A DNA stretch of 64,000 nt. It comes from an uncultured Candidatus Binatia bacterium (GTDB taxonomy: Bacteria; Desulfobacterota; Binatia; UBA9968; CAXXLF01). The position numbers were made by a program, and so were the translations under genes. The stretch is from assembly GCA_965218425.1 (NCBI GenBank), contig OZ244621.1, positions 56,187 through 120,186 of the forward strand, in the 5' to 3' direction. The notes beneath the pieces were generated by a model. That model was not told the DNA's origin, did no database searches, and saw nothing but the letters and a program-made list of their open reading frames with translations. Below are positions 1,376 to 64,000 of this stretch, one piece after another. The stretch's first letter is position 1. Each line of letters opens with the position of its first letter.

Positions 1376-1994
1376 CCTTGCCTCCTTCCTAAAATCAAAA
1401 TCCCTAACATTTCACCTGGACTCGTTTTAGGGGGCAAGGTCAGGTCCACATAAGGGTTGTCGAAATAGAACCTCACGTCGGGCACGATGGACATTGAAAT
1501 GGGGAGGTAATTGTAATGCAGCAACCGTACCGGCTTGTCGCCCCGCATGTTACTCAACGGGTGGCTGTAATTACGAGGAACTAAAAACCTGCTGTGTTTT
1601 TGCCACTCGAAAGTCTTTTTAGTCTTTTCTTCTCCTCCCCACAGGGTGGTTAGGCCGCGTCCCTCCACGACGTACACGATCTCGTCCAAGGTAAACTTTA
1701 GCGGAGGTAGAGTTCTTCCGGGTGCGATTTCTGACACGCGGGCCTCACTGACCCCTTCCTGGCCCGCAAGCTTTAGAAAGGCTGCACGACACTCCCTTTC
1801 GGGCCACTCTCCCAGCTCCAGGGTCCTCAAATCTTCAAGGTAATACCCTTTATGGATTGGAATTCCCGTGGACTCGATCCATTCATCGTAGGCAGAAGTG
1901 CGCCTCAAAAACTTGCCGCCGCATTATCGGTTATTACCTCTGTAACACTAGGAGCTGCGGCCATACCGTCCTTTTTCCGTGTCCCGAATAACCG

Positions 1995-58283: not shown

Positions 58284-59186
58284 TCAGGTCTTTTGGCTTG
58301 CCGAACGCCGAACTTCCGTCTTCTCTCCAAGCTCTATGGACATCAAATCCTCACCGACTTCCAAGGGGCCCGAATACTGTTTCCTTGTGGAAGGGATTAG
58401 ATCCTTCAGCAAATAGTCACCAAATAACAAAATATGCGTGTGGATTGCCAGTTTTGGCTTCGCGCGACTAAAAACTTCTCCCGCGCTCTCGGGTGTAGTG
58501 TGATTTGAGGCTATGGTTTTGCCAAATTGACTTTTTTGCAGGAATTCGTTCGACATGCCAACCACTTCATGAACCAAGAGATCTACTCCTTGAGAAAATT
58601 GGATGACGTTCTCATTAAACCGTGTGTCCCCAGAGAGGACTACGGATCGTCCGGCAAAGTCAATTCGGTATCCATAAGCAGGTTTGATCCGGCCGTGATC
58701 CACTTCAAAGGCGGTTATTTTTAGACCTTTGTTTTCGTAGACCACCCCACCGGTGAACTCTTCAGCAATCACCCGGATCCCTTCCTTTTGATAATGGGAC
58801 CGGATACGTATATCAAACTGATAGGCTTGCTCGAGGTGGGACATCATCTCCTTTGTCCCTCTGGGTCCCCGAACCGGCAGGGCAACTTGTCTGCCACCCC
58901 ACGCCTGATTAATCCAACCGGTGAGCCACAGGTCAGGGATACCCACCACGTGATCGGAATGGAGGTGAGTTAGAAATAGCCCGGTAATTTCTGAGAATCG
59001 GATCTTAAGCTGAAATAACCTTTGCAATGCGCCTCGACCGGCGTCAAAGAGAAATTTTTCCGATCCGGCTTCAACGAGAGTGCATGGCCCGAACCGCTCC
59101 ATTATTGGTGGAGGGCCCCCTGTGCCTAGCAGGGTAACTTTGAGTGTATCAGGTGCGCCGCTTGCCATTGCATTCTCCTCATTCAA
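58284..59186 (-). CDS. MBL-fold hydrolase, RNase Z/arylsulfatase-like
   Basis: LLGTG.P, DAG, THLHSDH, SGDT, LVHE, HTT motifs. Confidence 0.9.
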   Translation of the reverse strand: MNEENAMASGAPDTLKVTLLGTGGPPPIMERFGPCTLVEAGSEKFLFDAGRGALQRLFQLKIRFSEITGLFLTHLHSDHVVGIPDLWLTGWINQAWGGRQVALPVRGPRGTKEMMSHLEQAYQFDIRIRSHYQKEGIRVIAEEFTGGVVYENKGLKITAFEVDHGRIKPAYGYRIDFAGRSVVLSGDTRFNENVIQFSQGVDLLVHEVVGMSNEFLQKSQFGKTIASNHTTPESAGEVFSRAKPKLAIHTHILLFGDYLLKDLIPSTRKQYSGPLEVGEDLMSIELGEKTEVRRSASQKT

Positions 59187-59378: not shown

Positions 59379-60497
59379 ATGGCAATTGCACTCTCGCACG
59401 GTGGATCAAATATTTACTCCTCATCATCACGATCCGACGAGCTTCTGGTTGGAACCAAGGAAGGTGTCGTTATTCTAAAACGGGGTTCCAGTACCCAGTG
59501 GGATGTGGCGCACCGCGCCTTGCCCGACCAGTTTATCAGTTCTATTATCATAGAGCCCGACAGCAAGACCATCTTCGCCGGCGCCTTCTATGGCACAGTG
59601 CACGCCAGTACGGACGGTGGCAGAACTTGGCAGCGGCGGGATAACGGCCTGACGGTGCATGATGTCTATAGCCTGGCCTCGGTAAAGTTGAACGGCAAGG
59701 TTCGAGTCTATGCAGGGACAGAGCCCGCCCACCTTTTTTACAGTGAGGACCTGGGTCACCATTGGACAGAATTACCGTCCTTGAGATCCGTACCCAGTAC
59801 ACCCCAGTGGAGCTTCCCTGCCCCACCACACATCGCGCACACAAAATTCATCACTTTTGACCCTCTCAATCCCGCCAAGATGTATGTCTGTATCGAACAG
59901 GGCGCCCTATTGGCCAGCGATGATGCCGGTCAGAGCTGGAAGGAACTCAATACTGTTGGATTTTACACCGATAAGAATCGCCCGCTGGAGCATTTCTACG
60001 ACGTTCACAAGGCAATGATCCACCCGCACGATCCTAAAAGAATATTTGTGAGCGGTGGCGCTGGCCTGTACGTTAGCGCTGATGGGGGTGGCCATTGGGA
60101 GCGATGGACCAGCCCGGATTGGGCCACAGACGTCTATCCTGACGGTCTCGTCCTCAACCCAAACCAACCGGACACCATGTTTGTTTCAGCCGCAGAGCAC
60201 AATCCTCGCACCTGGCGTGAGGGCAAAACCCCCGGCCATGCCGGGACGCGAATATATCGTACCATTGACGGCGGGCGCACCTGGAAAATACTAGGCGACG
60301 GGCTGGCAGACCGGATGAAGCACGAAGCCGGGGCGTTATGTCTGGAGAGCCATGGAGAGTCGTTCTCAGTCTTTTTTGCAACCACTGGAGGCGATCTCTA
60401 TTGCACTGAGGATGGCGGAGATCACTGGTCTTTAATTAGTAGCGGCTTGGCGCCCGTTTCGAAAAAAGGGCATGAGCGCCTATTGAGAACGGCGTAG
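59379..60497 (+). CDS. BNR/Asp-box repeat beta-propeller protein
   Basis: Repeated S.DGG.(T/S/H)W motifs; AGTEPA; WSFP.PP...H. Confidence 0.88.
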   Translation: MAIALSHGGSNIYSSSSRSDELLVGTKEGVVILKRGSSTQWDVAHRALPDQFISSIIIEPDSKTIFAGAFYGTVHASTDGGRTWQRRDNGLTVHDVYSLASVKLNGKVRVYAGTEPAHLFYSEDLGHHWTELPSLRSVPSTPQWSFPAPPHIAHTKFITFDPLNPAKMYVCIEQGALLASDDAGQSWKELNTVGFYTDKNRPLEHFYDVHKAMIHPHDPKRIFVSGGAGLYVSADGGGHWERWTSPDWATDVYPDGLVLNPNQPDTMFVSAAEHNPRTWREGKTPGHAGTRIYRTIDGGRTWKILGDGLADRMKHEAGALCLESHGESFSVFFATTGGDLYCTEDGGDHWSLISSGLAPVSKKGHERLLRTA

Positions 60498-60864: not shown

Positions 60865-61087
60865 TTATAATTGCGGAGCCCGGGTTGGGAAGAAACAATG
60901 ATATTTTGTTGGGGCAAAAATTTCCCGATCTGTTTCTTCGAATATTCTCGGTCGTTTGCCGTAATCACCCAACGGCCTCACTTCCCCCCCAAACCTTGAC
61001 CTAGTCTCTACTCTCATAGATACTTCCAATTGAAGCACTGCAGGAAGACAGATCCCTGTCTTCCTGCTTAATTTCACGGGCTCGCCC

Positions 61088-61528
61088 TTGGAAAATCATC
61101 AGGAAATAGGACCACGGGTCATGATCCAGCAGGTTTCTCAGGTTGCCGGCTCATCCCCTCACCTCTGGGTCGTGGCTTGGAACATCCAGAACGCTGGAGA
61201 CCAACCGCTGCAGATCCTAAATGCACAGTGCCCCCATGGTCGATTTCGAGCCGGCAGGGTAGAGCTTGCCGATTACCCAGAGCTAATGCCCGGTAAAAGC
61301 ACACGCCTTGAGCTTGCGGTCACGTGCAAGGAGCCACCCGGCACTGTCGTGGAGAATACTTTTTTGATCCTCCAGGCCAAGTGGCGGAATCAACTCTGGC
61401 GGATATTGACTCGACTGACCATGACCTTTGACCAACAGGGTGCCCCAAATGGATTCACCGAGGTTATCACAACGCAGTCCGTCGGGTTCTCCAAGGGAAT
61501 GGGAGGGAGTGAAGATCCCCTAGACTAG
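61088..61528 (+). CDS. Hypothetical protein (beta-rich, possibly Ig-like)
   Basis: 146-aa ORF whose stop overlaps the RBS of the next gene; start codon uncertain. Confidence 0.7.
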   Translation: MENHQEIGPRVMIQQVSQVAGSSPHLWVVAWNIQNAGDQPLQILNAQCPHGRFRAGRVELADYPELMPGKSTRLELAVTCKEPPGTVVENTFLILQAKWRNQLWRILTRLTMTFDQQGAPNGFTEVITTQSVGFSKGMGGSEDPLD

Positions 61529-61540
61529 GAGGGAATCCCA

Positions 61541-61762
61541 ATGCCGATGAATAACGAAGAAAAAACCATTCTGCAAAAACTGCGTGGCTGACATAACAAC
61601 TGAGGCCTCGGCTTCGAAGAGACCACGGGTATGGTCTCCAACAGTCTCAATGTGGATCTGCAGGAATTGCTCAAGAAGTTGCAACGAATCAAGCGGGAAT
61701 ACGGTAAGAGCGCTGAGTTTCAGGATTGGCGAAAGCAAGTCCCCAAGGACTGGCCCATCTAA
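61541..61762 (+). CDS. Candidate small selenoprotein, 73 aa, with two in-frame UGA codons (UxxxU)
   Basis: RBS AGGAGG; MPMNNEEKTILQKLRG-U-HNN-U-GLGFEETTGMVSNSLNVDLQELLKKLQRIKREYGKSAEFQDWRKQVPKDWPI-TAA; TGA at 61589 and 61601. Confidence 0.7.
61619..61638 (+). promoter_or_regulatory. Putative bacterial SECIS hairpin
   Basis: GAGACCA-CGGGTA-TGGTCTC, a perfect 7-bp stem with G at loop position 2; the loop lies 22 and 34 nt after the two UGAs. Confidence 0.6.
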
Positions 61763-61783
61763 TTCCTTAAGATTAAGGATACT

Positions 61784-62551
61784 CTACAAGCCAGGGACGT
61801 CGGGTAATCGAACCACGGGTTGCCGCACTTGGAGGCGGGATACCCCCGCCCAGAATTCTCGCTGTCTGGTCATGGCCTGAACGTGTCCATCCCACTCCAG
61901 GGTAAACGCGGTTACCCCCAGTTTGACGGCACTTCTGACCTTTTCCTGTGTTACTGCATCCGTGGCAAATCCCCTGAGCGCGTCAATCTGGCGTCTGCCA
62001 TGGGAATCGTCCTGTTCGGCATGGAGTCGGTAGGTTTCCGCCGCATGTGCTGGGAACTTATAATACCCCGTCAGTTCCCTGTACACCTTTGCGGCAACAC
62101 CGTTGGTTCCACCATGCTGACTCTCCACGAAGCTAAGCATGGCGATGCCTTCCAATGCCGAGCGTCGTTGACAGCAGCCGGTGAGCATCTCGATGGCAGC
62201 CATGGTCCCTGGCGTCGGTTCCGCCGAGTCAGCCTCTTCCCGCGCGATACCACCCTCCTCGAGGAACTGGAGTAACACATCGGCATGACTTTTGGGTCCG
62301 GACAGTTCTTCCATGAAGTTCTCAAGCACCACATCCATGGGTCCGTAGTGTTTTTCGGCCACAGCGTTGATGGCAATGTAACCGAAGAAAATAGCATTGG
62401 TGCGAACCCGTAGATAGTGCTGAACCTCGCCGAGGATAATCTGCTGACGGGTCCAACGGTGTTGAATGATACCCTGAAACCAAGGGTGTTGTTCCATGGG
62501 TACCTCTCGGGCGTAACTCCAAAGCTCATCTATGAATTGATCTGAAGACAT
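61784..62551 (-). CDS. PqqC/CADD/TenA-like heme-oxygenase-fold diiron protein
   Basis: HPWF, ENFMEE.....SH, FVESQ, H...D..H ligand pattern; RBS AAGGAGG. Confidence 0.8.
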   Translation of the reverse strand: MSSDQFIDELWSYAREVPMEQHPWFQGIIQHRWTRQQIILGEVQHYLRVRTNAIFFGYIAINAVAEKHYGPMDVVLENFMEELSGPKSHADVLLQFLEEGGIAREEADSAEPTPGTMAAIEMLTGCCQRRSALEGIAMLSFVESQHGGTNGVAAKVYRELTGYYKFPAHAAETYRLHAEQDDSHGRRQIDALRGFATDAVTQEKVRSAVKLGVTAFTLEWDGHVQAMTRQREFWAGVSRLQVRQPVVRLPDVPGL

Positions 62552-62635
62552 GGACCTAACCTCCTTGAGAGAGCAGCCGAGAAGCCGATTGCTCATCCCA
62601 TTCTCGGTAAACGACCCTCCTGATGGAAGCGAGCT

Positions 62636-63247
62636 TCAGGGTATTTCCATTCCGCGCCGCACTGCAGGACGATTGCCCATGGCCCTGAACCATCGATGGA
62701 CGTTGGAAAATTCCTCCAGCCGGACCTGGTGCCACTCGAAGTGAGCCACCCAGGGGTAGGTGGCGATATCGGCGATGGAATAATCGTCCACAAGAAATTC
62801 CACTTGTGCGAGACGCTTGTCCAACACGGTGTAGAGCCGTCTGGTTTCTTTGCTGTAGCGCTCGACGCCATACGCGACTTCCGCTGCGTGCCGTATAAAA
62901 TGATGAGCCTGACCGAAGATCGGACCCACACCGCCCATCTGAAACATCAACCATTGAATCACATGGTATCGTTTCTTTGTTCCCCTTGGTAGCAGTTGAT
63001 TGGTCTTGTCTGCTAGATACATTAGGATCGCTCCGGATTCGAACAGCGGGTAGGGTTTCCCGTCAGGTCCTTCACGATCGACGATTGTTGGGATTTTATT
63101 GTTTGGGTTCAGCTCCAGGTACTCCGGCTCAAATTGTTCTCCCTTGCCGAGGTTGATGGGATGAACTTCATAGGGCAGGCCCACTTCCTCAAGCATAATG
63201 GAGACTTTTCGTCCGTTAGGTGTCTTCCAAGAATAGAGATCGATCAT
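62636..63247 (-). CDS. Glutathione S-transferase, Nu class (YfcG-like)
   Basis: TPNG motif, NPN.KIP, FESGAIL, QWL.FQ.GG.GP, YSIADIA. Confidence 0.9.
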   Translation of the reverse strand: MIDLYSWKTPNGRKVSIMLEEVGLPYEVHPINLGKGEQFEPEYLELNPNNKIPTIVDREGPDGKPYPLFESGAILMYLADKTNQLLPRGTKKRYHVIQWLMFQMGGVGPIFGQAHHFIRHAAEVAYGVERYSKETRRLYTVLDKRLAQVEFLVDDYSIADIATYPWVAHFEWHQVRLEEFSNVHRWFRAMGNRPAVRRGMEIP

Positions 63248-63259
63248 AAAAGAAATCCC

Positions 63260-64000
63260 TTAAGTTGAAAGAAAATTCAAAACCTTCTCACAAAAAATTT
63301 TTCTAACATCCCACATCAACAGATGAGCGGCACCATCGATCACCTCCACCCGAAGGTCTGGTTCTTTTTCTTTTAGAATGGCGCACCTCTTGGCGGCAGA
63401 CCCACGATCCTGAGCGCCATAGAGCATGAAAAGCGGAGCCGATACCTCCGTTAGGCGCTGGGACAGCGGGATCTGGCCCTTTTGTGATTCACGCGCCTTC
63501 AACCGCTCAAGTGACGCCTCAAAATTTTTTCCCAGACTCATTTCATGTCTCTGTCGCAAGACCTCGGGAGTAATGAGGTCTTTGTTATAAAGGTTGCCTT
63601 CCAAAAGCCTCCTCGTATCCTCCAGGGTTGGCGAGGCTTGGGTCCCTTCCTCTCCCTGCGCTGGACCCCCACCCCCTTGATCCGTTAACCGGGGGAGGAG
63701 ACTGCCTGTACCAACCGTCACCACCTTAATGACGCGATCAGGATGCTTCAATGCCAGCCCCATGACAAATCCTCCCGCTTGCGAGTGGCCGATCATGGAG
63801 GCCTGCCGGATCCCAAGGACATCCATGAATTTAACAACAAAGGCTTCCCTGTAGGAAGGTCGGTAGTCTTTTGGATTATCGGAATGACCGTAGCCGGGTT
63901 GGTCATAGGCAATAGCGCGAAACCCGCCCTGAGCCAAGGCGCCCAACGTATCCTTCCAAACGTCAGCGGAAGAGCCCAAGGATGCGCCATGAAGTAACAC
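63260..64000 (-). CDS. Alpha/beta hydrolase (5' end outside the window)
   Basis: LLHG, DQPGYG.S, GHSQAG, G..D, GAAH motifs. Confidence 0.88.
   Translation of the reverse strand: MLLHGASLGSSADVWKDTLGALAQGGFRAIAYDQPGYGHSDNPKDYRPSYREAFVVKFMDVLGIRQASMIGHSQAGGFVMGLALKHPDRVIKVVTVGTGSLLPRLTDQGGGGPAQGEEGTQASPTLEDTRRLLEGNLYNKDLITPEVLRQRHEMSLGKNFEASLERLKARESQKGQIPLSQRLTEVSAPLFMLYGAQDRGSAAKRCAILKEKEPDLRVEVIDGAAHLLMWDVRKIFCEKVLNFLST

Follow-up and report, generated by a model that had tools for sequence, protein, structure and literature searches.

The window analysed here, a stretch of 64,000 nucleotides (nt) of contig OZ244621.1 (positions 56,187 to 120,186 of the forward strand) from an uncultured Candidatus Binatia bacterium, contains at 61541-61762 a small gene whose frame is interrupted by two in-frame TGA codons. 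It is very probably a true gene for a protein with two selenocysteines (Sec, U), belonging to a family that is not yet catalogued. The archaeal proteins of this unnamed family share an invariant CxxxC motif, and the predicted 73-residue product represents, as judged from sequence, its Sec form. As the best explanation, we propose a real gene with both UGAs decoded as Sec, together with the recoding signal and the partner function described below, and we put the probability of this reading at roughly 0.8.

The product of the read-through frame (P0001) is MPMNNEEKTILQKLRG-U-HNN-U-GLGFEETTGMVSN...DWPI, with the two UGAs in the local peptide context G-U-H-N-N-U-G. The first-pass annotation of the window had described a strong ribosome-binding site, an ATG at 61541, a 73-codon frame closed by TAA at 61762 and TGAs at codons 17 and 21, all placed between an open reading frame (ORF) at 61088-61528 and a convergent PqqC-like gene; each of these features was found again at the positions given (Table 1). 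As it had also pointed out, the gene itself is missing from the ORF list, which gives only a 43-aa ORF from an internal ATG at 61631. Most of the homologues compared have a GGAG-type motif 5' of their conserved ATG. Contigs from three runs, together covering three studies, matched the window sequence across both TGAs with zero differences. The locus occurs in no run recorded as RNA, which bears on its expression in neither direction.

Conservation of the two TGA codons and their cysteine counterparts

A six-frame search of 41 genomes, comprising the window's own genome and 40 relatives, detected a homologue in 34 of them, at E values between 1e-44 and 2e-13 and with 40-82% identity. All 34 contain exactly two in-frame TGAs, embedded in the shared pattern G-U-x-x-N-U-G-[LVAG]-[GSD]-F-E-E-T-[TA]-G-M-[VI]-S-N (34/34), and the conserved start is ATG in 33 of them. 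Whereas the internal codons are TGA in 34/34, the true terminators are divided among TAG (17), TGA (11) and TAA (6), so that TGA is an ordinary stop codon in these organisms and true stops drift. Between the two UGAs, the Asn codon varies synonymously (AAT in 25, AAC in 9).

The same picture emerged from metagenomes. Using a search pattern that demanded both TGAs and the peptide FEET[TA]GM[VI] while leaving all synonymous sites free, at least 120 contigs were matched, of which 80 were taken as loci (79 distinct peptides). Each of these 80 loci has a complete frame, mostly of 71-77 aa, with two longer ones resulting from the simple start rule, and the terminators are TAG (47), TGA (19) or TAA (14). 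From codon -13 to the stop, the length is exactly 210 nt in all 110 usable sequences, without any indel. Over these 110 sequences, the median ratio of non-synonymous to synonymous substitution rates (dN/dS) in the 13 codons before the first UGA (UGA-1) is 0.49 in frame compared to 1.31 and 1.94 out of frame; for the part after the internal Met, the values are 0.35 in frame compared to 0.99 and 2.16 out of frame. Codon-position entropies follow the same periodicity on both sides (0.77/0.55/1.26 before the TGAs, 0.83/0.42/1.20 after them). Purifying selection is thus seen in the same single frame before as well as after the TGAs. Loss of the frame past the UGAs, which the first-pass annotation had named as evidence against its proposal, was therefore not observed.

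Outside the group of relatives, an even sample across the phylum gave no homologue in 300 other genomes at E <=1e-5, with only 17 candidates scored per genome. Among the genomes searched, the Sec form is confined to the window's order.

A profile built from 33 read-through peptides, run against a library of 1.84 billion representative proteins, matched 124 clusters. The majority (96/124) are stubs whose first residue is the internal Met, with a length of exactly 43 aa in 85 cases, and 22 are full-length proteins with CxxxC at both UGA positions. Of the remaining six, three are giant proteins (P0009, P0117 and P0125, 1081-2180 aa) that showed several profile matches each and were rejected as repeat or zinc-finger proteins, and two are shorter fragments. 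The sixth, P0095 (59 aa), is an odd call: it carries the Sec-form sequence from LGFEETTGMVSN on, whereas its N-terminus is unrelated and its tail basic. It probably results from miscalling or a frameshift of the gene in some assembly. When 6 Sec and 22 Cys forms were aligned jointly, five columns were invariant (C17, C21, F25, T28 and M31). A profile search of a 5.8-billion set returned 505 family members, none with a Pfam domain; those with names are mostly 'hypothetical protein' entries of Thermoplasmata metagenome-assembled genomes (MAGs), plus a few evident mislabels.

Named species-representative genomes provided 59 Cys-form loci, nearly all from Thermoplasmata; a few bear the labels Bathyarchaeota, Nitrososphaerales, Methanobacteriota or Micrarchaeota, and one is listed as 'bacterium'. 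The motif could be located in 58 of them, and in all 58 both positions are TGC or TGT. Homologues therefore keep either TGA at both sites or Cys at both sites, the two outcomes that the first-pass annotation had expected of a selenoprotein, and Trp, Arg or Gly, which it had associated with nonsense decay, was seen at these positions in no homologue. The standard criteria for bacterial selenoproteins are paired Sec and Cys homologues and a downstream stem-loop (PMC13188914, PMC12013277). At the level of sequence, Sec/Cys pairing of this kind is present here. A metagenome scan for Cys/Cys forms keeping FEETTGMV gave no match.

The genome of the window is equipped for Sec decoding, as the first-pass annotation had asked to be confirmed: selA, selB and selD are present together with a tRNA-Sec (76.5 bits, anticodon TCA). 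The selD gene (G000:C1:1307623-1308549, minus strand) contains one in-frame TGA in the context HVKASG-U-AAKLGP and is itself a selenoprotein gene. It adjoins selB, and tRNA-Sec and selA are located within about 10 kb. It is the only other selenoprotein gene identified in this genome, for which no whole-genome selenoprotein scan was made; none of five molybdopterin-enzyme matches contains a TGA. Since SelA was found in 39/41 of the relatives, its presence or absence hardly discriminates between genomes with and without the small gene. One genome (G005) has neither SelA nor the small gene, and in another (G021, 92% complete, 440 contigs) the small gene is present and SelA was not found.

Hairpins downstream of the UGAs

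The first-pass annotation had drawn attention to a perfect 7-bp hairpin with a CGGGTA loop downstream of the second UGA (UGA-2). We recovered this element, here named hairpin 2, exactly as described: it starts 15 nt after UGA-2, and the distances to the start of its loop are 22 nt from UGA-2 and 34 nt from UGA-1. Both distances, together with the G in the apical loop (CGGG(T/C)A), agree with what had been put forward for a bacterial Sec insertion sequence (SECIS).

Among the 34 genomes, the arms of hairpin 2 are unchanged in 19, a G.U replaces the closing A-U pair in 14 and one mismatch occurs in a single genome, so that the 7-bp stem is kept in 33/34. The 14 closing-pair changes are ACG to GCG, which alters the residue and retains the pair. 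In a set of 101 distinct sequences with 707 stem cells, a single cell is unpaired and G.U pairs account for 13. The codon usage of 73 distinct metagenome segments, in which synonymous sites had been free in the search, separates the stem from its surroundings. Within the stem, Glu is encoded by GAG in 73/73, Thr by ACC in 73/73 and Val by GTC in 71 and GTT in 2, the latter keeping a G.U pair. Just 5' of the stem, Glu is GAA in 38 and GAG in 35; in the loop, Gly is GGT in 54, GGC in 17 and GGG in 2; and just 3' of the stem, the third base of Ser is C in 34, G in 30 and A in 9 (TCC/TCG/TCA). Synonymous sites that are frozen in the stem and free beside it point to selection at the RNA level. The Cys forms have no positionally fixed equivalent of this hairpin. 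For the equivalent 20 nt, the predicted folding energy has a median of -9.2 kcal/mol in Sec forms, with 33/34 at -5 or lower, compared to -4.6 kcal/mol in Cys forms, with 18/58 at -5 or lower.

A second conserved element, hairpin 1, lies 5' of hairpin 2 and holds UGA-2 in its 5' arm. Its arms are identical in 33/34 genomes and all four loop positions are variable. In the 101 distinct sequences, the inner five pairs show no mismatch in 505 cells, one pair being G.U in 63 and A-U in 38; the closing pair is unpaired in 18/101 and G-C in place of C-G in two. The tetraloop occurs in at least 19 variants, GNRA-type loops among them. Because its loop is unconserved, hairpin 1 is probably an auxiliary structural element rather than a SelB-binding site.

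These features can be combined into a model of decoding in which SelB loaded with Sec-tRNA(Sec) would dock on the G-rich hexaloop of hairpin 2. With UGA-1 in the A site, hairpin 1 would start 9 nt downstream, approximately at the mRNA entrance, with hairpin 2 directly behind it. Four codons on, hairpin 1 would have melted and hairpin 2 would now stand 15 nt past UGA-2, while also serving UGA-1, which is 12 nt further upstream. Hairpin 1 may act as a compact spacer or pausing element. In Escherichia coli fdhF, the spacing between UGA and SECIS is about 11 nt. As hairpin 2 comes close to this value, one SelB-binding hairpin could plausibly serve both UGAs, and it is somewhat more likely than not that hairpin 2 alone recruits SelB for both of them.

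The hairpin block was also visible in the assemblies. In four runs (X1, X2, X4, X5), the assembly contigs of the window organism break inside the block, at 61597-61648, and the summed depth there rises from about 4-10 to 60-200. Contigs of other organisms in the same samples have the hairpin block in common, and their upstream ends again read GGC-TGA-(9 nt)-TGA. About 45 nt at the block are near-identical in many co-occurring relatives, so that the recoding signal acts as a short repeat in metagenome assembly graphs.

Predicted fold, gene neighbourhood and competing explanations

AlphaFold 2 (AF2), run with a 33-sequence alignment, predicts a confident four-helix bundle (mean predicted local distance difference test score, pLDDT, 91.2; predicted template-modelling score, pTM, 0.75) with helices at residues 5-21, 25-35, 40-54 and 58-64. 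Helix 1 is packed into the bundle at pLDDT 87-92. Given these helix limits, residues 17 and 21 would be separated by a single turn and share one face of helix 1, close to its end. Foldseek with the small protein found nothing at E <=0.001; the best E value was 0.46, with template-modelling (TM) scores of up to 0.58, and the neighbours were homeodomains, MntR, ComA/DosR and Lrp-type proteins. VIA-align, for which Z <8 is stated as the common range for helical bundles, placed a de novo design on top (Z 8.0), followed by natural matches to MntR (6.3), DR2539 (6.3), IdeR (5.8), GerE (5.6) and sigma region 4 (5.5-5.7). At the sequence level, the best profile match in the PDB is the regulator CapW (E 0.26), and a match to SlrR (E 0.012) reached 15.7 bits compared to a cut-off of 250. 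The best ESM Atlas score for P0053 is 0.76, which we treat as a lead only.

Neither the window protein nor any of 28 family members scanned scores above the cut-off of a Pfam or NCBIfam (release 20) model. A 2026 catalogue lists 119 prokaryotic selenoprotein families, including double-Sec families of the UxxU and UxxxxU types, and in its Table 1 we found neither a UxxxU entry nor a small helical family of this kind (PMC13188914). Within these sources, the statement of the first-pass annotation that the family is not a recognised one thus holds. Full-text literature searches returned nothing on this family, which could be listed in the supplements of deep-Sep or groundwater-MAG papers.

The gene is flanked by a characteristic neighbourhood (Table 1). 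Directly upstream, a homologue of the co-directional 146-aa gene is present in 33/34 genome loci and in 66/66 metagenome contigs with room for it. Its product has an invariant P49-H50 and C80, and AF2 predicts eight strands (pLDDT 89.8). It belongs to no Pfam or NCBIfam family; the fold matches only generic immunoglobulin-like (Ig-like) proteins (ApaG, ASF1 and TRAP-beta, TM 0.3-0.4), and in the ESM Atlas it scored 0.98 with unnamed clusters of 'hypothetical protein' entries and 0.82 with DUF1573/Ig-like proteins. A perfect 12-bp hairpin, GCAGGAAGACAG-ATCC-CTGTCTTCCTGC followed by TTAATTT, was observed at 61040-61067 (plus strand), 3' of a sigma-70-like match (60996-61024) and ahead of the 146-aa gene, where it could act as a terminator or belong to a structured 5' leader.

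On the other side lies the convergent haem-oxygenase-like (HO-like) gene, which occurs in 32/34 genome loci and in 37/41 metagenome contigs with room and is convergent in 56/57 hits. Judged from its orthologues, its true start is probably a Met at about 62551, 15 codons past the first ATG. In 53/58 archaeal loci, the Cys-form gene is followed on the same strand by an ORF of about 298 aa that starts at a distance of -3 to +125 nt, and 46 of these 53 partners match TENA/THI-4/PQQC and Haem_oxygenas_2. Among 54 partner proteins scanned, 47 match PF14518 and PF03070, and 45 carry an N-terminal zf-C2H2_9 finger (PF16293) that is absent from the bacterial HO-like proteins. In the sources, the archaeal partners are named 'iron-containing redox enzyme family protein' or carry the automatic label 'pyrroloquinoline-quinone synthase'. 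The window HO-like protein remains far below the NCBIfam cut-offs of CADD (TIGR04305) and PqqC (TIGR02111), with 49.7 bits compared to 200, and so do the archaeal partners (CADD 24-30 bits against a cut-off of 200, PqqC 23 bits against 240). Bacterial and archaeal enzymes are 23-34% identical and have E57, H60, E97, H104, E113, E194, D196 and H199 in common, a set that by its residue types fits a carboxylate/histidine metal site of the HO-like diiron type. No conserved Cys is common to the bacterial and archaeal enzymes. In the alignment of the bacterial HO-like proteins (A6), an invariant vicinal Cys-Cys pair was noticed (G140-C141-C142-Q-R-R-S), which the archaeal partners lack.

Between the convergent stop codons, the gap of 21 nt includes a perfect 7-nt inverted repeat that may form the shared terminator hairpin of both genes; it was not called in a terminator scan because it is AT-rich. 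Further away in the window, and named from their translations only, we noted genes for a metallo-beta-lactamase-fold protein (58284-59186, minus strand), a protein with BNR/sialidase-like repeats (59379-60497, plus strand), a glutathione S-transferase-like protein (62636-63247, minus strand) and an alpha/beta hydrolase (63260-64000, minus strand).

Table 1. Features of the small gene and its immediate neighbours, in window coordinates
Feature	Position	Strand	Remarks
Upstream co-directional gene, 146 aa, Ig-like beta-sandwich	61088..61528	+	ends 12 nt before the ATG of the small gene
Shine-Dalgarno-like AGGAGGG	61527..61533	+	7 nt 5' of the ATG
Full gene, ATG 61541, 73 codons + TAA (61760-61762)	61541..61762	+	read-through frame
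UGA-1, codon 17, putatively read as Sec	61589..61591	+	TGA in 34/34 genomes; invariant Cys in archaeal homologues
UGA-2, codon 21, putatively read as Sec; first three bases of hairpin 1	61601..61603	+	TGA in 34/34 genomes; second invariant archaeal Cys
Hairpin 1, TGAGGC / loop CTCG / GCTTCG; 5' arm holds UGA-2	61601..61616	+	conserved; not listed in the first-pass annotation
Hairpin 2, SECIS-like: GAGACCA (61619-61625), loop CGGGTA (61626-61631), TGGTCTC (61632-61638)	61619..61638	+	7 bp, perfect
43-aa ORF from internal ATG 61631	61631..61762	+	from the ORF list; stub annotated instead of the real gene
Inverted repeat TCCTTAA/TTAAGGA, 7 nt, perfect	61764..61779	.	inside the 21-nt gap between convergent stop codons
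Convergent HO-like gene (Haem_oxygenas_2 / TENA-THI4-PQQC superfamily)	61784..62596	-	PF14518 53.3 bits, cut-off 28.9

With respect to function, the two selenols of Sec17 and Sec21, one turn apart, could form a redox-active or metal-binding pair. Its partner would be the adjacent HO-like enzyme, which is probably iron-dependent, joined in bacteria by the Ig-like product of the 146-aa gene directly upstream. Judging by gene neighbourhood only, we tentatively favour such a redox or metal partnership with the enzyme over a role as regulator or substrate, at odds somewhat short of even. A complex prediction for an archaeal Cys-form pair (P0251 and P0133, alignments A7 and A8) scored 0.00, which speaks neither for nor against binding. 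It is conceivable, yet somewhat unlikely, that this is the first selenoprotein dedicated to an HO-like diiron enzyme, with selenols delivering electrons or metal and a compound signal in which one hairpin serves two UGAs with the help of a spacer or pause hairpin that sequesters the second of them.

Two other ways of reading the TGAs were considered. If they were true stops, the region would consist of a 16-codon leader and regulatory RNA hairpins gating the internal ATG, and only the 43-aa protein would be made. This ATG is indeed invariant (34/34) and lies within the 3' part of hairpin 2, GAGGAG or GAAGAG stands 9 nt upstream of it, and the 43-aa ORF is the one predicted by all gene callers. 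However, the Cys-form homologues are one continuous ORF through both positions, so that residues 1-30 belong to the protein, and the predicted packing of helix 1 into the bundle agrees with this. A genuine stop would also be expected to drift between TGA, TAA and TAG like the real terminator, and a second in-frame TGA four codons on would have no purpose. The codon between the UGAs varies synonymously (AAT/AAC), and leader and 43-aa ORF stay in one frame, free of indels, in 110/110 sequences; we consider this explanation highly improbable. We give equally little credence to the possibility that near-cognate decoding or a lineage-specific code inserts a standard residue (Trp, Cys or Arg) at the UGAs, or that the gene is a decaying pseudogene. 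Insertion of Cys at UGA would yield the same CxxxC as in the archaeal forms, but TGA is the gene's own terminator in 11/34 and 19/80 homologues, so that these organisms use the standard genetic code. The genome also has the complete Sec machinery, and the UGAs are accompanied by a position-specific hairpin that is absent from the Cys forms. A pseudogene is contradicted by the purifying selection and by 110 sequences without an indel or an extra stop.

The gene could also be a real Sec gene encoding a small helix-turn-helix (HTH) regulator, whose selenol or thiol pair (thiol in archaea) would sense redox state or a soft metal and control the neighbouring genes, without physical partnership with the enzyme. 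Almost all of the best structural matches are HTH domains that bind DNA, the weak sequence matches are to SlrR and the regulator CapW, and the archaeal small gene comes first in its pair, as do many autoregulated metal-sensor repressors. The fold scores nevertheless all remain within the range common for helical bundles, no HTH family of Pfam or NCBIfam is matched, and with 12 Lys+Arg compared to 10 Asp+Glu the window protein is not strongly basic. Moreover, strict adjacency to one enzyme family in both bacteria and archaea seems more typical of subunits or chaperones, and the supposed bacterial target gene is convergent. Taken together, a regulator appears rather unlikely, yet it is the main rival of the partner function.

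Several points weigh against the proposed di-Sec protein, its recoding signal or its partner function. The Sec product is a prediction from gene sequences, and the gene is absent in 7/41 genomes, six of which have SelA, so it is dispensable. One homologue (L041 at G024:C3, approximately 1495-1710, reverse strand of the locus) has neither a start codon at the conserved place nor the upstream gene. In this locus, CCC stands in the place of the conserved ATG, the 146-aa gene is missing and the upstream region is apparently replaced; both TGAs and both hairpins are intact. The Cys residues of P0006, the closest full-length 'Cys' protein, may be U displayed as C: its sequence is of bacterial type and at most 64% identical to any Sec form compared. 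Regarding the signal, the single-sequence fold is unremarkable (-22 kcal/mol, z = -0.84, 39/200 shuffles at least as stable), so that the case for it rests on comparison. Hairpin 2 overlaps the invariant peptide FEETTGMVS and its conservation could partly be at the protein level, which leaves the synonymous-site pattern as the only means to separate RNA-level from protein-level conservation. Of the co-variation suggested as a check in the first-pass annotation, frozen synonymous sites and wobble-compatible changes were found and strict covariation was not, since the hairpin is almost invariant. Compared with hairpin 2, the region after the selD UGA of the same genome folds differently and shows no visible likeness; as the molybdopterin-enzyme matches have no TGA, the genome offers no useful SECIS comparison. 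An Rfam scan of 61400-61900 returned no family, only chance-level hits to SNORD52 and mir-1825. With regard to function, the structural neighbours are all DNA-binding HTH domains, which favours a regulator, the bacterial HO-like gene is convergent and thus not co-transcribed with the small gene, and because synteny within one order is not independent, the neighbourhood argument amounts to two lineages, the bacterial order and the archaea.

Significance and comparison with known systems

Annotation pipelines miss the gene throughout: with 96/124 profile-matched clusters being internal-Met stubs among 1.84 billion representatives, a diverse family in an environmentally widespread bacterial order is recorded wrongly. 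The selenoproteome would gain a family with a UxxxU spacing, which is absent from the catalogue of 119 prokaryotic families (PMC13188914). Two UGAs four codons apart with one SelB-type hairpin would constitute a compact natural system for the question of SelB reloading and for asking whether one SECIS acts twice in the same ribosome passage. Furthermore, the link across domains provides orphan HO-like 'iron-containing redox enzymes' with a candidate partner. If the protein were indeed a selenoprotein dedicated to this enzyme, the small gene could be a main reason why the order keeps its Sec machinery.

Comparing the proposed signal to SECIS elements of the E. coli fdhF type and the bSECISearch consensus, both are stem-loops in the coding region just 3' of the UGA, and hairpin 2 has the G at loop position 2, followed by GG(U/C). 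It differs in that one SelB-type hairpin would serve two UGAs 12 nt apart, that an additional conserved hairpin holds the second UGA and that no Rfam match exists.

The gene arrangement, with the gene of a small protein beside that of an HO-like or iron-dependent enzyme across distant lineages, resembles non-haem iron enzymes with a small dedicated partner protein, such as PqqC with PqqD in the PQQ operon or MbnB with MbnC. The small protein, however, shows no homology to PqqD or MbnC (no Pfam match) and no peptide substrate gene was seen here; unlike PqqC, the HO-like partner falls below the PqqC and CADD model cut-offs. With the N-terminal domains of DtxR/MntR, with LuxR/GerE and with sigma region 4, the predicted fold shares a similar order and packing of helices 1 to 3-4 (MntR 1on1, Z 6.3 over 62 aligned residues; GerE 1fse, Z 5.6), values in the noise range for helical bundles. 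In contrast to these HTH domains, it has no significant sequence similarity to them and no wing, and its CxxxC/UxxxU pair is without counterpart there.

The catalogued double-Sec families include the metal-binding 'putative mercuric reductase' NF041115 and the FmdB-family regulatory protein (both UxxU), a Prx-like oxidoreductase (UxxU) and the rhodanese/DsbD-like TsoB (UxxxxU) (PMC13188914). The small protein matches no NCBIfam or Pfam model of such families (NF041115, FmdB, TsoB, MbdU and others). As in these families, two UGAs stand a few codons apart, homologues with Cys exist, and a role as redox pair or metal ligand is presumed (PMC13188914). Compared with the entries described there, the family reported here is set apart by its UxxxU spacing and by a predicted four-helix bundle in place of a thioredoxin, rhodanese or zinc-ribbon fold.

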